Shown one piece after another: positions 1 through 5,380 of a stretch of 5,380 bases of DNA (within the stretch, counting starts at the first letter, position 1; every line of letters begins with the position of its first letter). A program made the translations under genes and the position numbers. This DNA is from a virus (lineage: Duplodnaviria; Heunggongvirae; Uroviricota; Caudoviricetes), in the IMG/VR virus record IMGVR_UViG_2667527898_000018; one strand, 5' to 3'. The notes under the pieces are model-generated. The model was not told where the DNA came from and ran no database searches. It saw only the letters and a list, made by a program, of their open reading frames with translations.

Positions 1-52
1 AAAGGTATGCGTGGAAACGCATATGGCCTTAGTTGGTCAGATATATTGGGAC

Positions 53-67
53 TCGCTTTGTCAGCGA
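53..67 (-). promoter_or_regulatory. nutR-type boxB hairpin (N-utilisation site) downstream of the cro-like gene
   Basis: Minus strand reads UCGCUGACAAAGCGA: 5-bp stem with a GACAA pentaloop, the same loop and inner stem as the + strand copy at 2962-2976. It lies just downstream of the cro-like stop, where nutR sits in lambdoid phages. A weak boxA-like CGCUAUUUUCACAA is at 82-98 on the minus strand. Confidence 0.6.
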
Positions 68-105
68 CGTAGGACGAATGTCCATTGTGAAAATAGCGGT
101 GTTAC

Positions 106-339
106 TTATGCAGCCGATGCTCTACGCGATACGAACACTAGGTTTTCCTTTTTCACAGGTTTATAACCCGTGAAATTACGAGTAGCTTCTTCGATTGCAT
201 TCGCTTTATCAGGGGAAGCTCTTCGAAATCCATATGCAATCTGGTCAAGATAGCCAACTGAAGTTTTCGCTAATGCGGCGAGTCGCTTCCATTCCTCGCT
301 AGAAGCCTCTTTTCGCCAGCGTAGTAGTTCATTACTCAT
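106..339 (-). CDS. cro: Cro/YdaS-like small HTH DNA-binding protein (77 aa), in the cro position
   Basis: 77-aa ORF divergent from the cI-like repressor across a 113-bp operator region. RBS GGAGG (complement of 345-349) sits 5 nt before the ATG. The product has an HTH-like segment (LAALAKTSVGYLDQIAYGF) followed by RRASPDKANAIEEAT, typical of Cro/YdaS-type regulators. Call rests on position plus family pattern. Confidence 0.7.
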   Translation of the reverse strand: MSNELLRWRKEASSEEWKRLAALAKTSVGYLDQIAYGFRRASPDKANAIEEATRNFTGYKPVKKENLVFVSRRASAA

Positions 340-452
340 TAGTGCCTCCGTTTATCACACAGAACAACTTTACCATTTTGATAAATCAACCGCAATGTAA
401 ATTTATCATATTGCGTATTTATCCATTTGCTAAATAGAGGGAAAATTGTGAG
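340..452. promoter_or_regulatory. Divergent immunity operator/promoter region (OR-like) between cro-like and cI
   Basis: AT-rich 113-bp divergent intergenic region with three copies of a 7-bp core: ATTTATC at 401-407 and 417-423, and its complement GATAAAT at 380-386. A 15-mer AATTTATCATATTGC (400-414) recurs almost identically at 2848-2862. Candidate cro promoter on the minus strand: -35 TTGCGG (complement of 390-395), 17-bp spacer, -10 TAAAGT (complement of 367-372). Confidence 0.6.
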
Positions 453-1157
453 ATGGAAAACAAAGATATTCGCAAATCGAATCTGGCGTTTTTGCTAGAT
501 GAGCATAAAAAAATCGCGGGTAACACTAATGCAAGCTTTGCCGATAAGCTTGGGGTTAGCCCTTCTCAACTCACGCAAGTCTCCGGTGAAAAAAGCACTC
601 GAAACATAGGGGATAAACTAGCAAGAAAATTTGAAGCCGCGCTTGGGTTACCTAATGGGTGGCTTGATTTGGTACATGATGTAACACCAATTGCATCATT
701 CTCAGATTCTTTAACTTTTGTCGGTCAGGTAAGAAAAGGGTTAGTGCGCGTGGTTGGTGAGGCAATTCTTGGTGTTGATGGTGCCATCGAGATGACCGAA
801 GAGCGCGATGGGTGGCTCAAAATTTATAGCGATGATCCAGATGCCTTTGGTCTTCGTGTGAAAGGAGACAGCATGTGGCCCAGAATAAAATCAGGAGAAT
901 ATGTACTCATTGAGCCTAACACCAAAGTATTCCCGGGTGATGAGGTGTTTGTCAGAACCGTTGAAGGACACAACATGATTAAGGTTCTTGGCTATGACAG
1001 AGATGGAGAATACCAATTTACAAGCATTAACCAGGATCACAGGCCTATAACGTTGCCTTATCATCAAGTAGCAAAGGTGGAGTATGTAGCTGGTATTCTG
1101 AAGCAATCTCGCCATCTGGATGACATCGAGGCAAGGGAGTGGCTGAAAAGTTCGTGA
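453..1157 (+). CDS. cI: Phage CI/LexA-type repressor with C-terminal S24 peptidase (autocleavage) domain, 234 aa
   Basis: N-terminal HTH (NASFADKLGVSPSQLTQVSG); C-terminal S24 signature with catalytic Ser in GDSMWP and a downstream Lys (NMIKVLG). Divergent from the cro-like gene across an operator-rich spacer. Confidence 0.9.
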   Translation: MENKDIRKSNLAFLLDEHKKIAGNTNASFADKLGVSPSQLTQVSGEKSTRNIGDKLARKFEAALGLPNGWLDLVHDVTPIASFSDSLTFVGQVRKGLVRVVGEAILGVDGAIEMTEERDGWLKIYSDDPDAFGLRVKGDSMWPRIKSGEYVLIEPNTKVFPGDEVFVRTVEGHNMIKVLGYDRDGEYQFTSINQDHRPITLPYHQVAKVEYVAGILKQSRHLDDIEAREWLKSS

Positions 1158-1237
1158 CTTCATCGTCACATAGCTGGTAACCAGTGGCCTGAAGAGACGT
1201 TTGGGTGATGTACATAGCATTTCTGGATAAAAATACA

Positions 1238-1281
1238 GATTCCCTTTATGGGAAATGAATCTATAATTCCCAAAGAGGGAA
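1238..1281 (+). promoter_or_regulatory. Candidate higB promoter with two palindromic operator-like sites
   Basis: Perfect -10 TATAAT at 1262-1267, flanked by two palindromes of identical architecture TTCCC-N5-GGGAA at 1240-1254 (TTCCCTTTATGGGAA) and 1267-1281 (TTCCCAAAGAGGGAA). No good -35 is evident. RBS-like AGAGGGA at 1274-1280 lies inside the second palindrome. Confidence 0.5.
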
Positions 1282-1293
1282 CAAAATCGGATT

Positions 1294-1581
1294 ATGAAGG
1301 TCTTAAACGTAGAGAAGCTTCACAGTTTTAGCCAGAAGCACAATCAGGCCAAGGGGGCTTTAGACTCTTGGTATGATGAAGTGATAAGAGAAAACTGGAA
1401 AACGACTCAAGACATACGGAATAGATTTAATTCTGCCGACTTCCTTCCTAACAACAGGGTAATTTTTAATATAAAAGGCAATAACTATCGGCTCGTTGTC
1501 CAAGTTGTTTACCAGGCAGGAATGGTCATAGTTGAAAGAGTTGGAACTCATGCAGAGTACGACAAGTGGAGGCTTAAATGA
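1294..1581 (+). CDS. higB: HigB-family type II toxin (RelE/ParE superfamily mRNA interferase), 95 aa
   Basis: C-terminal region FNIKGNNYRLVVQVVYQAGMVIVERVGTHAEYDK matches the recalled HigB pattern (E. coli HigB: FNVGGNELRVV...REVMTHKEYD). Toxin-first gene order is typical of higBA. Stop overlaps the next start in ATGA (1578-1581). Confidence 0.85.
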   Translation: MKVLNVEKLHSFSQKHNQAKGALDSWYDEVIRENWKTTQDIRNRFNSADFLPNNRVIFNIKGNNYRLVVQVVYQAGMVIVERVGTHAEYDKWRLK

Positions 1582-2234
1582 ATCGAACTAGCTGGCGCAT
1601 CATTAAAAATAGTGAAGAGCATGCTGCAGCTATGGAAAGGCTCATTGAACTTGCGTCTAGTGATTTACAACCTGGAACTGAAGATTTTGATGAGTTTGAA
1701 CTACTAGGCTTGCTTATCGAGCACTATGAGTCACGCGAGTTCCCTATGGACAAGCCAGATCCCATAGAAGCAATCAAGTTCCGTATGGATCAACAAGGCC
1801 TCTCTTATGCCGATATGAAACAATACATTGGCTCAGCATCTAAAGTATCTGAGGTCTTAAATCGTAAGCGTCCATTAAGTCTTTCAATGATCCGTAGACT
1901 ACATGACGGACTTGGAATTCCTGCAGATATCTTAATTCAAGATATGAGCGCAATTGAATGGAGCCTAGTTGACGCAGAGGAAGAAGAAACAGCCATGACT
2001 AGCGTCATTGCTCGGTGTGAGTCAGCCGTCACATCACCTTCTGCTTATTTCGCTGAAAAGGCTACAGAATCTTACTTTTCAAAAATGTTGTTCAGCGCAG
2101 TAAGGGGTAACGGCAAATGCAAAGAAAAACGGAATGTTTTTTCTTTGATAAGTAACTTGTCATCAAGTTTCACAGCGGCTAGCAACCTGAATGACGAAAT
2201 GACTTCTGACGGAAATTACTTATTATTACCATGA
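1578..2234 (+). CDS. higA: HigA-family HTH antitoxin with ~96-aa C-terminal extension (candidate chaperone-addiction segment), 218 aa
   Basis: Residues ~67-122 (KFRMDQQGLSYADMKQYIGSASKVSEVLNRKRPLSLSMIRRLHDGLGIPADILIQ) match the HigA HTH as recalled from E. coli HigA (…MDQYGLTLSDLPEIGSKSMVSRVLSGKRKLTLEHAKKLATRFGISPALFID, which ends there). This ORF continues ~96 residues further. Start overlaps the higB stop (ATGA) and its stop overlaps the next start (ATGA, 2231-2234). Confidence 0.85.
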   Translation: MNRTSWRIIKNSEEHAAAMERLIELASSDLQPGTEDFDEFELLGLLIEHYESREFPMDKPDPIEAIKFRMDQQGLSYADMKQYIGSASKVSEVLNRKRPLSLSMIRRLHDGLGIPADILIQDMSAIEWSLVDAEEEETAMTSVIARCESAVTSPSAYFAEKATESYFSKMLFSAVRGNGKCKEKRNVFSLISNLSSSFTAASNLNDEMTSDGNYLLLP

Positions 2235-2635
2235 AAATTGAACTCATTAGCAAAAAAGTTGAACGCTTGGTTATGACACGGCTAGAAGGCGATTCAACAG
2301 CAAAAAAATCCATAAAAACAACCGTTAATCTAAATAATGAACTTTACACTAATGTGAAGGATTCAAAGCTATTTAGAGTGAGATATTTTGCCTCCGTAAC
2401 TATTGAAGGCAGGCTTGAGATGGACATCACATACGACTTTGACTTCCGGTCAGAAGATGATTTTTCTCATGAAATGGCAAAATCATATGAGGTAAGGTCC
2501 ATTGCTCCCAATATGGCATATCCCTATATAAAAACATATGCCGAGCAAATTATCCTCATGTCAAACCTTGGTAGGTTCACTCTGCCTTATTTTGATTTCT
2601 TGGCCAATCCCATGGAAACGAACAGTAATAAGTGA
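2231..2635 (+). CDS. SecB-like chaperone (candidate TAC chaperone), 134 aa
   Basis: C-terminal region SIAPNMAYPYIKTYAEQIILMSNLGRFTLPYFDF aligns with the recalled E. coli SecB segment [33 protein letters not shown] (PN..PY, (R/K), L.P, (N/D)F). Size is close to SecB (155 aa). Translationally coupled to the extended higA. Confidence 0.7.
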   Translation: MKIELISKKVERLVMTRLEGDSTAKKSIKTTVNLNNELYTNVKDSKLFRVRYFASVTIEGRLEMDITYDFDFRSEDDFSHEMAKSYEVRSIAPNMAYPYIKTYAEQIILMSNLGRFTLPYFDFLANPMETNSNK

Positions 2636-2643
2636 AATTCCCC

Positions 2644-2670
2644 ACCCGGCCTCAGCGCCGGGTTTTCTTT
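2644..2670 (+). terminator. Rho-independent terminator ending the cI/higBA-secB transcription unit
   Basis: GC stem CCCGGC (2645-2650) / GCCGGG (2657-2662) with a 6-nt loop, followed by TTTTCTTT (2663-2670), 10 nt after the SecB-like stop. Confidence 0.7.
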
Positions 2671-2772
2671 GCCCCACGTTCGCCCACCTAAAAACACATA
2701 ATCGATTGTATTTATTGAAAAACTGATAGATACAACTTGCTAAACAACGCAATCCAGATCTCCCTCAAATCT

Positions 2773-2893
2773 CTTTATTTATCCTGTCGAATTCCTACAA
2801 CAAAATAAAACACCATAAGAATCAATACGATATTTGAAAACCAAGAGAATTTATCATTTTGCTATTGCCATTAATTTATCATTCCGATAAAGT
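2773..2893 (+). promoter_or_regulatory. OL/PL-like operator-promoter region for the early-left operon
   Basis: ATTTATC core at 2777-2783, 2849-2855 and 2874-2880. The 15-mer AATTTATCATTTTGC (2848-2862) is 14/15 identical to the OR copy at 400-414. Palindrome TTTATC-ATTCC-GATAAA at 2875-2891. Candidate PL: -35 TTGCCA (2865-2870), 17-bp spacer, -10 TAAAGT (2888-2893), the same -10 hexamer and spacing as the candidate cro promoter. Confidence 0.5.
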
Positions 2894-2961
2894 TCACCCA
2901 TCAGCAGGACGCACTACTCACCAGGGCGGTGAATATACAACGATTCGAATATGAATCTACG

Positions 2962-2976
2962 GCGCTGACAAAGCGC
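2962..2976 (+). promoter_or_regulatory. nutL boxB RNA hairpin (P22-type)
   Basis: GCGCTGACAAAGCGC is a perfect 5-bp stem with a GACAA pentaloop, matching the P22 boxB sequence as I recall it (GCGCUGACAAAGCGC). It lies in the ~240-nt leader between the candidate PL and the N-like gene. No convincing boxA upstream. Confidence 0.7.
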
Positions 2977-3141
2977 AATAACCAAAGTGAACTTTGGGGT
3001 GTGGTGAAGGGTTCATGGACGGGAATATGTCGCACGTAAAGCGGCGAGGCCTGCGGGACTATTGCCGAATTGAAGTAGGCCGAAACAGGTCGAAATGGGT
3101 CTCCCACCTACCACACCACCAAAGTTCATCAGGAGGTCTAT

Positions 3142-3525
3142 ATGACACGCAGAACTCAGTTCAAAGGCAATTCACGTTCTCGTCGTCGTGAGCGTTTAAA
3201 GGTAAAGGCATTAGCTAACGGCGTACTGGCCCGCGAAGAAGCAATAAGTTCAGAAGTATTACACCGCCCTACTCTAAGCAGAGCGCAGATTCAGGCTAAA
3301 GGTACTCACGAAACGCCTGAGCGCATAGAAGACGCTAAGCCAGTTAAGTTCATGGCACAGGACGTGATCTGGCAGCAGAAAGAATACAGACGCAATCTGG
3401 AGCGAGCGACCATTGTGTACGCGAATGAGTTTGGACATAAGCAACCAGAAACTGGTGTATGTCTTCCAAACGTAGCCATTTACGCTGCAGGCTACCGGAA
3501 ATCAAAACAACTGACAGCAAGATGA
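3142..3525 (+). CDS. N: N-family transcription antitermination protein (P22 gene 24-like), 127 aa
   Basis: N-terminal arginine-rich motif GNSRSRRRERLKVKA resembles the P22 N motif GNAKTRRHERRRKLAIER. C-terminus …NVAIYAAGYRKSKQLTAR resembles the recalled P22 N C-terminus (…VALYAAGHRKSKQITAR). Strong RBS AGGAGG at 3131-3136; first gene after OL/PL and the boxB hairpin. Confidence 0.8.
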   Translation: MTRRTQFKGNSRSRRRERLKVKALANGVLAREEAISSEVLHRPTLSRAQIQAKGTHETPERIEDAKPVKFMAQDVIWQQKEYRRNLERATIVYANEFGHKQPETGVCLPNVAIYAAGYRKSKQLTAR

Positions 3526-3586
3526 CTTGTGTTGGTCGCCAGAAAATGAGATTAGGCAGCAAACCACTTATTTGAGAGGAATTAAT

Positions 3587-4210
3587 ATGTCATCAATCCG
3601 CTTAACTACGAGAATGAAAGAGGAAATCGCTCGTAACGCTTTAATTAAGTCTGGGGTTTTCACTGAACTTGAAGAAGTAACAAAGTTAAAGAACCAGCTT
3701 GCACTTGACGCCAGAGTTATTGCGTTTGGCGGTAAAAAGAAAACTGAGGAAGTGGATCAGTTATCATCCAAGTTGGTAGCTATAAGTGAAGAACTTGAAA
3801 AGATGGGATGTTCATTTTACTCATACGATGTTAGTTCTACTTCAATTTATCTGACTGTATCTGGCAGAAGGGTTGGATGGCATTCATATGGGAAAGACGG
3901 CAACGGCAAAGATATATTGCTCCCTACTCCGACCAAAGATAAATGCATGTTTGACGCAGAGCACGAAATAACAAAAAGGTTTGATGAAATCTGCGCATTG
4001 CAACAAAAACTTGAAGCCAAGAAAAAGGATATCGAATCAAATGTATGGGCTGCTTTAAACTCAGTCACAACAGTTAAGCGACTTATTGAAGTTTGGCCTG
4101 AAAGCAAAGAATTGCTACCAAAAGAAGCAGATAAAGCAAGTACAGCACTTCCTGCTTTACGGGTAAAAGATTTGAATAAAATGATTGGACTTCCTTCCGA
4201 GGCCGCATAG
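3587..4210 (+). CDS. Hypothetical protein, 207 aa (early-left operon accessory gene)
   Basis: ORF track gives 3527-4210, but the ATG at 3587 has an RBS GAGAGGA (3574-3580) with ~6-nt spacing, so 3587 is the likelier start. Hydrophilic, Lys/Glu-rich, no family recognised. Its stop codon TAG (4208-4210) sits in the loop of a terminator hairpin. Confidence 0.6.
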   Translation: MSSIRLTTRMKEEIARNALIKSGVFTELEEVTKLKNQLALDARVIAFGGKKKTEEVDQLSSKLVAISEELEKMGCSFYSYDVSSTSIYLTVSGRRVGWHSYGKDGNGKDILLPTPTKDKCMFDAEHEITKRFDEICALQQKLEAKKKDIESNVWAALNSVTTVKRLIEVWPESKELLPKEADKASTALPALRVKDLNKMIGLPSEAA

Positions 4211-4226
4211 TCGGCCTTTATTTTTG
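4199..4226 (+). terminator. Rho-independent terminator overlapping the stop codon of the 207-aa gene
   Basis: Stem AGGCCG (4200-4205) / CGGCCT (4212-4217), loop CATAGT containing the TAG stop, followed by TTATTTTTG (4218-4226). Confidence 0.6.
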
Positions 4227-4254
4227 CCATAAACAACAGAATAAACACTGCACT

Positions 4255-4282
4255 GTGTATTCATTCCAACGAGTGAATACAC
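4255..4282. repeat. Perfect 9-bp inverted repeat GTGTATTCA-N10-TGAATACAC
   Basis: GTGTATTCA (4255-4263) and TGAATACAC (4274-4282) are exact reverse complements separated by 10 nt, in the intergenic gap between two terminator-like hairpins. Function unknown. Confidence 0.5.
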
Positions 4283-4344
4283 GGAGCAATGTCGCTCGTA
4301 ACTAAACAGGAGCCGACTTGTTCTGATTATTGGAAATCTTCTTT

Positions 4345-4371
4345 GCCCTCCAGTGTGAGGGCGATTTTTTA
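4345..4371 (+). terminator. Rho-independent terminator-like hairpin upstream of the 122-aa gene
   Basis: Stem GCCCTC (4345-4350) / GAGGGC (4357-4362), loop CAGTGT, followed by GATTTTTTAT (4363-4372). Confidence 0.65.
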
Positions 4372-4390
4372 TCTATGAGGATATGAACAG

Positions 4391-4759
4391 ATGTCAAACA
4401 TCAAAAAATACATCATTGATTACGACTGGAAAGCATCAATAGAAATTGAAATCGACCATGACGTAATGACAGAGGAAAAACTTCACCAGATTAATAATTT
4501 CTGGTCAGACTCTGAATACCGACTCAATAAACACGGCGCTGTATTAAATGCTGTATTAATCATGCTGGCGCAACATGCTCTGCTTATAGCAATTTCGCAA
4601 GACTTAAATGCATATGGTGTTGTTTGTGAGTTCGACTGGGATGATGGAAATGGTCAGGAAGGATGGCCTCCAATGGATGGTAGTGAAGGAATAAGAATTA
4701 CCGATATCGATACATCAGGAATATTTGATTCAGATGATATGACTATCAAAGCCGCCTGA
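4391..4759 (+). CDS. Hypothetical acidic protein, 122 aa
   Basis: Clean ORF with RBS-like GAGGA (4377-4381) upstream. C-terminal half is strongly acidic (CEFDWDDGNGQEGWPPMDGSEGIRITDIDTSGIFDSDDMTIKAA). No family recognised with confidence. A weak hairpin AAAGCCGC/GCGGCTTT (4748-4769) spans its stop codon. Confidence 0.6.
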   Translation: MSNIKKYIIDYDWKASIEIEIDHDVMTEEKLHQINNFWSDSEYRLNKHGAVLNAVLIMLAQHALLIAISQDLNAYGVVCEFDWDDGNGQEGWPPMDGSEGIRITDIDTSGIFDSDDMTIKAA

Positions 4760-4834
4760 GCGCGGCTTTACCGCATACCAATAATGCTTCACGAGAGGCA
4801 TTTTCGTTATGCAATCAAATATAAGGAGTTACCC

Positions 4835-4969
4835 ATGATGCACTTTCAGCTCGCGGGTAGCGGCGTCATGTCCGCTTTCTACCCGCACGAATCTGAATTA
4901 TCACGCCGAGTTAAACAATTAATCAGAGCAGCAAAGAAACAACTGGAGGCGTTATGCGCAATGAAATAG
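4835..4969 (+). CDS. cIII: CIII-like small protein (candidate FtsH inhibitor), 44 aa
   Basis: RBS AAGGAG (4823-4828) 6 nt before the ATG at 4835; the longer track ORF from 4784 has no RBS. MMHFQLAGSGVMSAFYPHESELSRRVKQLIRAAKKQL resembles recalled lambda CIII MQYAIAGWPVAGCPSESLLERITRKLRDGWKRL (M-x-aromatic-x-I/L-A-G, then P-x-E-S-x-L-x-R in an amphipathic helix). Confidence 0.6.
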   Translation: MMHFQLAGSGVMSAFYPHESELSRRVKQLIRAAKKQLEALCAMK

Positions 4970-5106
4970 CCATTAATCACCAGATGCTTCGTGCTGCACA
5001 GAACAAAGCAGTAATAGCCCGATTTATTGGTGATTCAAAAATGTGGCTTGAAGCAAATAAAGCGATGAAATCAGCTATCAACCTTCCGTGGTATCGCAGG
5101 AAATGA
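4954..5106 (+). CDS. kil: Kil-like small protein (candidate host cell-division inhibitor), 50 aa; absent from the ORF track
   Basis: My translation from the ATG at 4954 is MRNEIAINHQMLRAAQNKAVIARFIGDSKMWLEANKAMKSAINLPWYRRK. RBS GGAGG at 4945-4949. It overlaps the 3' end of the cIII-like gene by 16 nt in another frame, as cIII and kil overlap in lambda. IARFIGDSKMWLEA resembles the recalled lambda Kil segment IATFIGDEKMFREA. Confidence 0.5.
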   Translation: MRNEIAINHQMLRAAQNKAVIARFIGDSKMWLEANKAMKSAINLPWYRRK

Positions 5107-5178: not shown

Positions 5179-5380
5179 GTGTACTGGCAATAGCGGACAC
5201 TACCATTTGTTCTTTTTTTAAGTAGCTATCTGATGATATTTTTCCCTGAAGGCTGCCGGGGAGATATTCCCCAGACGAGAGTGACGACGCTGACGATTGT
5301 AGAAAATCTCAATGTATTCCCGTATTACTGAGATGGCTTCATCCCGGTTATTAAAACGATAGTAGCTCAGGCTCTCATAT
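5176..5380 (-). mobile_element. IS3-family insertion sequence, terminal inverted repeat and 3' end, continuing beyond the window
   Basis: Plus strand from 5176 reads TGAGGTGTACTGGCAATAGCGGACAC, resembling the recalled IS3 terminal repeat pattern TGATCTTACCCAGCAATAGTGGACAC. The adjacent minus-strand ORF encodes a typical IS3-family OrfB C-terminus. Boundary is approximate (about 5 bp either way). Confidence 0.7.
5218..5380 (-). CDS. IS3-family transposase OrfB, C-terminal 53 codons (partial; 5' part lies beyond the window)
   Basis: My minus-strand translation is …YESLSYYRFNNRDEAISVIREYIEIFYNRQRRHSRLGNISPAAFREKYHQIAT*, with the FYN..RRHS.LG..SP..F motif of the IS3-family integrase-core C-terminus. 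Stop codon is the complement of 5218-5220. Not in the ORF track because it runs off the window. Confidence 0.8.
   Translation of the reverse strand, partial: YESLSYYRFNNRDEAISVIREYIEIFYNRQRRHSRLGNISPAAFREKYHQIAT

Follow-up and report, generated by a model that had tools for sequence, protein, structure and literature searches.

Does a prophage with P22-type boxB hairpins on both sides of a repressor unlike that of P22 combine P22 antitermination with a different immunity specificity? This question was raised by a 5,380-nucleotide (nt) stretch of viral DNA, referred to here as the window, from IMG/VR record IMGVR_UViG_2667527898_000018. In a preliminary description, two hairpins with the same loop, one on the plus strand at 2962-2976 and one on the minus strand at 67-53, were proposed to be the boxB elements of nutL and nutR. 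Sequence comparison makes it almost certain that the window covers immunity and early control in a lambdoid prophage of E. coli or Shigella, one of the Shiga-toxin-phage type with H-19B immunity, and that both hairpins are the nutL and nutR boxB. The N-nut module is not new and has been characterised by experiment: here the standard H-19B/933W/HK97 cassette stands beside the H-19B immunity region, and the combination is no new mosaic.

The boxB hairpins and their N protein

A scan of the whole window placed both 15-mers, each with a GACAA loop, exactly where they had been described. The nutL boxB (GCGCTGACAAAGCGC, plus strand) pairs as GCGCU-GACAA-AGCGC, its RNA 15-mer GCGCUGACAAAGCGC being the presumed binding target, and the nutR boxB (TCGCTGACAAAGCGA, minus strand) pairs as UCGCU-GACAA-AGCGA. 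No other hairpin in the window combines a perfect 5-base-pair (bp) stem with a GACAA loop. Among 3,000 dinucleotide-preserving shuffles, 61 contained at least one such hairpin and a single shuffle contained two or more. Chance repeats and terminator stems were considered as sources of the hairpins and were ruled out by the shuffle statistics, the absence of U-tracts and conservation: the nutL boxB is identical in H-19B, 933W and HK97, and the nutR boxB in H-19B, 933W and WGPS9. Scanned against Rfam with E values up to 1 allowed, the whole window had three matches, none of them at the nut sites and each far short of its gathering score; the boxB elements here are covered by no curated Rfam family.

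By the terms of the preliminary description, the proposal would fall if the hairpins did not fold in transcript context or if the N-like protein had no N-family homology in a profile search; neither was the case. Folded alone, the nutL boxB has an energy of -7.1 kcal/mol (z -3.2) and the nutR boxB one of -5.6 kcal/mol (z -3.8), and both were retained in the minimum free energy and centroid folds of transcript contexts of 51, 71, 81, 141 and 251 nt. The open reading frame (ORF) at 3142-3525 on the plus strand, which encodes 127 amino acids, matched Pfam PF25694 (N_peptide) at 1.2e-14, with 55.1 bits against a cut-off of 27.9, and phrog_271 ("anti-termination protein N-like") at 6e-38, as expected of an N-family antiterminator. 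Its product is 97.6% identical to the N protein of 933W, 96.1% to that of HK97 and 95.3% to that of H-19B. The arginine-rich motif (ARM) lies at about residues 7 to 25, and the ARM peptide, residues 7 to 27, reads FKGNSRSRRRERLKVKALANG. A phmmer search of PDB chains with N gave only two chance-level matches (E 0.27 and 0.78); lambda N and the P22 N peptide, too short or too diverged to be picked up in this way, were not among them.

The hairpins had also been said to lie just downstream of the two divergent early promoters, which is true of nutL and not of nutR. A PL-like sigma-70 site (TTGCCA-17-TAAAGT, 2865-2893, plus strand) is found about 70 nt 5' of the nutL boxB, and by position its transcript would start near 2900, about 60 nt ahead of the hairpin. 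The PR-like site (TTAGCA-17-TATGAT, 433-405, minus strand) precedes cro (339-106), and the nutR boxB is about 340 nt away from it, behind cro and 39 nt from the cro stop codon, a lambda-like arrangement. The window thus has what defines a lambdoid N/nut system: an N-family protein with an ARM, a boxB in each of the PL and PR transcripts, nutL before N and nutR after cro. The observed gene order matches that of a lambdoid immunity region, with the lambda "leftward" direction along the plus strand. Lambda has the same layout (PL-nutL-N and PR-cro-nutR, with a 5-bp stem and a pentaloop in boxB), and the RRRER core of its ARM is common to the N protein here. The lambda boxB loops, GAAAA and GAAGA, differ from GACAA, and Trp18 of lambda N stacks on the loop, whereas the ARM of the window N has no Trp.

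The H-19B immunity region was sequenced in 1998 and has been studied experimentally since. In the original characterisation, by Neely and Friedman in 2000, H-19B N reportedly needed NusA but not NusB or S10, and boxA is said to have been dispensable; lambda antitermination needs boxA and NusB/S10. The H-19B-type nutR, which has the same sequence as the one found here, is a laboratory workhorse of antitermination biochemistry. Four published oligonucleotides match the window exactly, at 87-110, 68-89, 48-71 and 27-52; the first three are RS662, "antisense to nutR boxA of H-19B," RS663 for the nutR spacer and RS664 for the nutR boxB (PMC3526286). The H-19B nutR was found to have two hairpins, and its spacer and boxB were protected when N, NusA and NusG were present together (PMC3526286). 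With H-19B N, termination at the Rho-dependent tR1, which overlaps the identical nutR, is overcome in vivo and in vitro (PMC3526286), and the same nutR has been used for N-dependent read-through (PMC4499122).

The 22-nt spacer of nutR (68-89, minus strand) matches RS663 exactly and folds into a hairpin, GGAC-AUUC-GUCC (82-71), that is kept in HK97, 933W, Oslo and epsilon34. In nutL, the part upstream of boxB (2910-2961, plus strand) has a long spacer, about 40 nt, in which two small hairpins form, CACC-AGGGC-GGUG (2919-2931) and GAUUC-GAAUAU-GAAUC (2942-2957), whose stems are conserved in the Salmonella phages Oslo and epsilon34 and whose loops differ there. In the GenBank record of 933W, nutL is annotated over the equivalent of 2910-2976 and nutR over that of 98-53. 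Neely and Friedman are said to have described the dyad symmetry of the spacer as a "reducer" that draws the elements on either side of it closer to each other, and the spacer hairpins seen here agree with such a structure.

A boxA is harder to place. On the minus strand at 90-98, 22 nt 5' of the nutR boxB and inside RS662, there is a boxA-like element, CGCUAUUUU, which agrees with the consensus CGCUCUUUA at 7 of 9 positions and coincides with the start of the nutR feature in the 933W record. HK97 has CGCUCUUUU at this position, with CGCTCTTTT in place of the CGCTATTTT found here. With up to 2 mismatches allowed, the consensus matched the window 13 times against 16 expected, so that sequence statistics by themselves do not suffice to call a boxA. 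Position and the literature support a single match, the nutR one at 98-90, which on its own is indistinguishable from chance.

The following scheme would account for these features. Once the repressor is inactivated, PL and PR would fire and the nascent RNAs would fold their GACAA boxB hairpins. N, made from the PL transcript, would bind the boxB loop through its arginine-rich N terminus and recruit NusA to the spacer through its central part. The complex would then loop onto RNA polymerase and render it resistant to intrinsic terminators and to Rho-dependent ones such as tR1, which overlaps nutR, so that the delayed-early genes could be expressed. By this scheme nutL should function in the window prophage as well. 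Two observations weigh against the assignment of both hairpins to working nut sites. No recognisable boxA was found for nutL when the stretch from PL to boxB was searched with up to 2 mismatches. In addition, one end of an IS600 element lies shortly after kil, and the prophage may be interrupted or defective, so the nut sites may no longer serve a viable phage.

How far the likeness to P22 extends

We then asked how the module relates to that of P22, since the preliminary description had assigned it a P22-type specificity. In its strict form, this would place the N-nut pair in the P22 gp24/nut group, each N being active at the other's sites, which we consider rather unlikely. The resemblance is nevertheless close at boxB. 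P22 nutL reads CGCTCTTTAA-CTTCGATGAT-GCGCTGACAAAGCGC, and the window nutL boxB is identical to its boxB at 15 of 15 positions; it is therefore the same RNA as in the nuclear magnetic resonance structure PDB 1A4T, and the RNA of this P22 N-peptide/boxB complex as given in PMC11480772 is indeed the window nutL boxB. All four nut sites of P22 and the window have the GACAA loop. The window nutR boxB shares the loop and 4 of the 5 stem pairs with the P22 nutL boxB; the P22 nutR boxB has another stem, ACCGC/GCGGU, and a 7-nt loop region.

The N protein had been credited with a P22-like arginine-rich motif, and its FKGNSRSRRRERLKVKALA does align with FAGNAKTRRHERRRKLAIE of P22 gp24, the common pattern being F-GN---RR-ER. 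In the P22 complex, a Lys and an Ile of the peptide contact G6/A7 and the flipped C8 (PMC11480772). The counterparts in the window N are Arg12 and Leu24, both conservative replacements. Likeness is found again in the C-terminal 30 residues, the RNA-polymerase-binding end, which are 67% identical to those of gp24.

The rest of the module differs from that of P22. From GN onward, only 7 of the 17 ARM positions are identical, most of the others being conservative, and the middle region of N is unalignable with gp24, so that BLASTP aligns only the last 30 residues. In the epsilon34 genome paper, N specificity was assigned by at least 92% identity (PMC2629481); at 39% over the alignment with gp24, the window N would be a different type. 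In P22, a canonical boxA, CGCTCTTTA, precedes boxB at both nut sites, with 10 nt of unstructured spacer in between, whereas the window has a degenerate or absent boxA and spacers of at least 22 nt with hairpins. A search of the window for a canonical boxA (CGCUCUUUA) about 10 nt 5' of boxB was negative, and in blastn comparison of each locus, DNA homology with the P22 nut regions was confined to the 15-mer. The P22 c2 repressor and its operators are unrelated to those of the window: cI gave a weak match to c2 within the S24 peptidase core only and is unrelated outside it, as the preliminary description had suspected.

By sequence, then, membership in the P22 N specificity group is not established, as both the identity of N and the boxA arrangement fall outside it. 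It is a reasonable inference that the boxB-ARM interface works like that of P22. Recognition of boxB would most likely be of the P22 kind, with a GNRA-like pentaloop fold and the third base (C) flipped out, because the 15-mer is the same and the contact residues are conservatively replaced (Lys by Arg12, Ile by Leu24); we infer likeness of atomic recognition from this correspondence. The remaining nut architecture would be of the H-19B kind, with boxA weak or missing and small hairpins that shorten the long spacers.

The P22-identical nutL boxB and the conservatively kept ARM contacts also make it possible that the N proteins of P22-like Salmonella phages and those of Stx-type E. coli phages (H-19B, 933W and HK97) cross-activate each other's nut sites despite about 39% identity, although we hold this to be improbable. 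If it were true, a phage of one group, superinfecting or resident in the same cell, could drive early transcription in a prophage of the other, and ultimately transcription linked to Stx.

Relatives of the module vary in both the ARM and the boxB loop. In epsilon34, the ARM of N is lambda-like (GRRRERRAALQ), and GAAA(A) loops occur in the two boxB elements (4380-4394 and 2039-2052 of its locus); the nut regions of this phage, including the flanks and spacer hairpins, are otherwise homologous. The N protein of Oslo is 85% identical and has the ARM GTSRARRRER. Its nutL loop is CGUCAAC (about 4338-4352 of its locus), and its nutR boxB, UCGCU-GACAA-GGCGA, has a U-G closing pair (about 1880-1895); the flanks and spacer hairpins are again homologous. 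The joint change of ARM and boxB loops in epsilon34 is a natural counter-example that supports a functional ARM-boxB pairing.

Although short 5-bp hairpins are common and nutR overlaps a rut/tR1 region to which Rho also binds, it is extremely improbable that the hairpins are incidental inverted repeats, or RNA stability or Rho elements with no role in N action: two with a GACAA loop arose in 1 of 3,000 shuffles, they occupy canonical nut positions, their sequence is invariant across phages with three immunity regions, both boxB loops change along with the ARM in epsilon34, and published footprinting and reporter data contradict this reading, boxB of identical sequence having been protected by N with NusA and NusG (PMC3526286).

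One cassette beside several immunity regions

The closest relatives of the window are Shiga toxin phages. A series of Stx1a-converting phages is 98.6% identical over positions 1-4837. H-19B is about 97 to 99% identical across 1-3576 and 98.7% within 1-3001, where BP-4795 and Stx2a_WGPS9 likewise reach 98 to 99%. None of the complete E. coli genomes compared reaches 99% identity across the full window, which may indicate an origin in Shigella or elsewhere. Compared with H-19B (GenBank AF034975), cI is identical at 233 of 234 residues, Cro at 76 of 77, and N is 95% identical. With the same cI and Cro, the window falls in the H-19B immunity group; judged from these proteins, it has H-19B immunity specificity and should have the same operators. 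Over 75 nt at each boxB (45 nt on the upstream side, the 15-mer and 15 nt on the downstream side), H-19B, 933W and WGPS9 are identical to the window. The N-nut module is of the H-19B/933W/HK97 type in N, which is at least 95% identical, and in having a nutL and a nutR with hairpin-containing spacers.

The window and H-19B carry the same DNA, with HigB, HigA-like and ORF134 genes, between cI and PL, and they differ as follows. Inside the N-leader hairpin (3002-3113), the window has the 933W/HK97 cassette in place of the H-19B one; H-19B has no match to 3577-4249, where an Nmad5-family gene follows N; and erf follows kil in H-19B, whereas the window has the IS600 end there.

In 933W and HK97, the N-leader cassette is that of the window and N is 96 to 98% identical; the HK97 nutL and nutR are nearly identical, with few base differences. 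These phages differ from the window in their immunity regions. The homology covers 1-113/115, that is, nutR and the last cro codons, and then ends. It restarts at 2645-2647, at a terminator (2644-2663) that forms the right-hand mosaic joint with both phages, and takes in PL, nutL and N as far as 3576. Between the joints, 933W alone matches again, in the C-terminal half of cI (704-1206). Thus, one N-nut cassette flanks at least three immunity cores, those of H-19B, 933W and HK97. The proposed mosaic of P22-type antitermination with another immunity therefore stands as regards the mosaic pattern, and "P22-type" applies only to the boxB loop and stem and the ARM.

A cassette flanking varied immunity cores is a long-known lambdoid feature. 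As the combination of the H-19B/933W/HK97 N-nut module with differing immunity regions is textbook lambdoid mosaicism, the discovery value of the locus is small. Its practical value is annotation: H-19B immunity, a 933W/HK97-type N leader, a HigBA-like moron and an early-left operon interrupted by IS600. The nut sites, unannotated in most database records of related prophages, can be marked here.

The repressor gene is itself mosaic. Across 704-1206, which holds the C-terminal half of cI and the 3' flank of the gene, identity to 933W is 97.8%, and the N-terminal, DNA-binding half is unalignable, which places a recombination joint inside the gene. The 933W and H-19B repressors have a common C-terminal domain (PMC3202840), in agreement with such a joint.

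Operators, N leader and neighbouring genes

The repressor gene (453-1157, plus strand) encodes a Peptidase_S24 protein of the H-19B immunity type and is divergent from cro (106-339, minus strand; 77 amino acids). A candidate operator motif, AATTTATCATnTTGC, occurs in two exact copies (400-414 and 2848-2862) and in three copies with 3 mismatches (367-381, 416-430 and 2873-2887). All five lie inside the two promoter regions, against 1.4 expected. The OR cluster and PR together span 367-433, and OL (2848-2862 and 2873-2887) and PL span 2848-2893 on the plus strand. The motif is apparently built on the half-site-like core ATTTATC(A/C), found at 401, 417, 2849 and 2874, and the inverted core (GATAAAT) occurs at 380, within the palindrome TTGATAAATCAA. 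The number of operators (three at OR, two or three at OL) and their boundaries are motif-based and are candidates only.

Between nutL and N, the leader at 2987-3130 (plus strand) folds, in a 251-nt context, into a long hairpin (z -3.8), at whose base GUGAACUUUGGGGUG pairs with CACC.CCAAAGUUCAU, the latter ending a few nucleotides 5' of the Shine-Dalgarno sequence of N. Among relatives, the interior is one of three unrelated cassettes, shared by the window, 933W and HK97, by H-19B and Oslo, or found in epsilon34, and each cassette extends the stem by its own complementary sequence. A boxC-like element, GGGGTGTGGTG, follows nutL at 2996-3006. Lambda has a boxC after nutL and, before the N ribosome-binding site, a long N-leader hairpin that RNase III processes; the window resembles lambda in both.

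Between cI and the terminator, in the "rex position," lies an insert of three genes (1294-2635). The first encodes a HigB toxin (1294-1581; Pfam PF09907, 4.5e-30). The second, whose start overlaps the HigB stop codon, encodes a HigA-like helix-turn-helix (HTH) protein (1578-2234) that is unusually long at 218 amino acids. The third is an ORF of 134 amino acids (2231-2635) with no Pfam family and a match to phrog_10298, of unknown function. The insert is present in the H-19B DNA too, unannotated in the 1998 record; in RefSeq relatives it is annotated as a toxin of the HigB family together with an HTH or HigA protein. The intrinsic terminator at 2644-2663 (plus strand), equivalent to tM, closes the transcript of cI and the moron, and the 933W record has tM at the equivalent place.

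Downstream of N, the Nmad5-family gene (3587-4210; Pfam PF18757, 1.3e-71) lies in a stretch (about 3577-4249) with no match in H-19B, 933W or HK97; the latter two annotate an unrelated 471-nt ORF just after N. It is followed by a DUF2528 (Ea10-like) gene (4391-4759), cIII (4835-4969), kil (4954-5106) and the end of the IS600 element (IS3 family), which occupies about 5190-5380 with its transposase on the minus strand.

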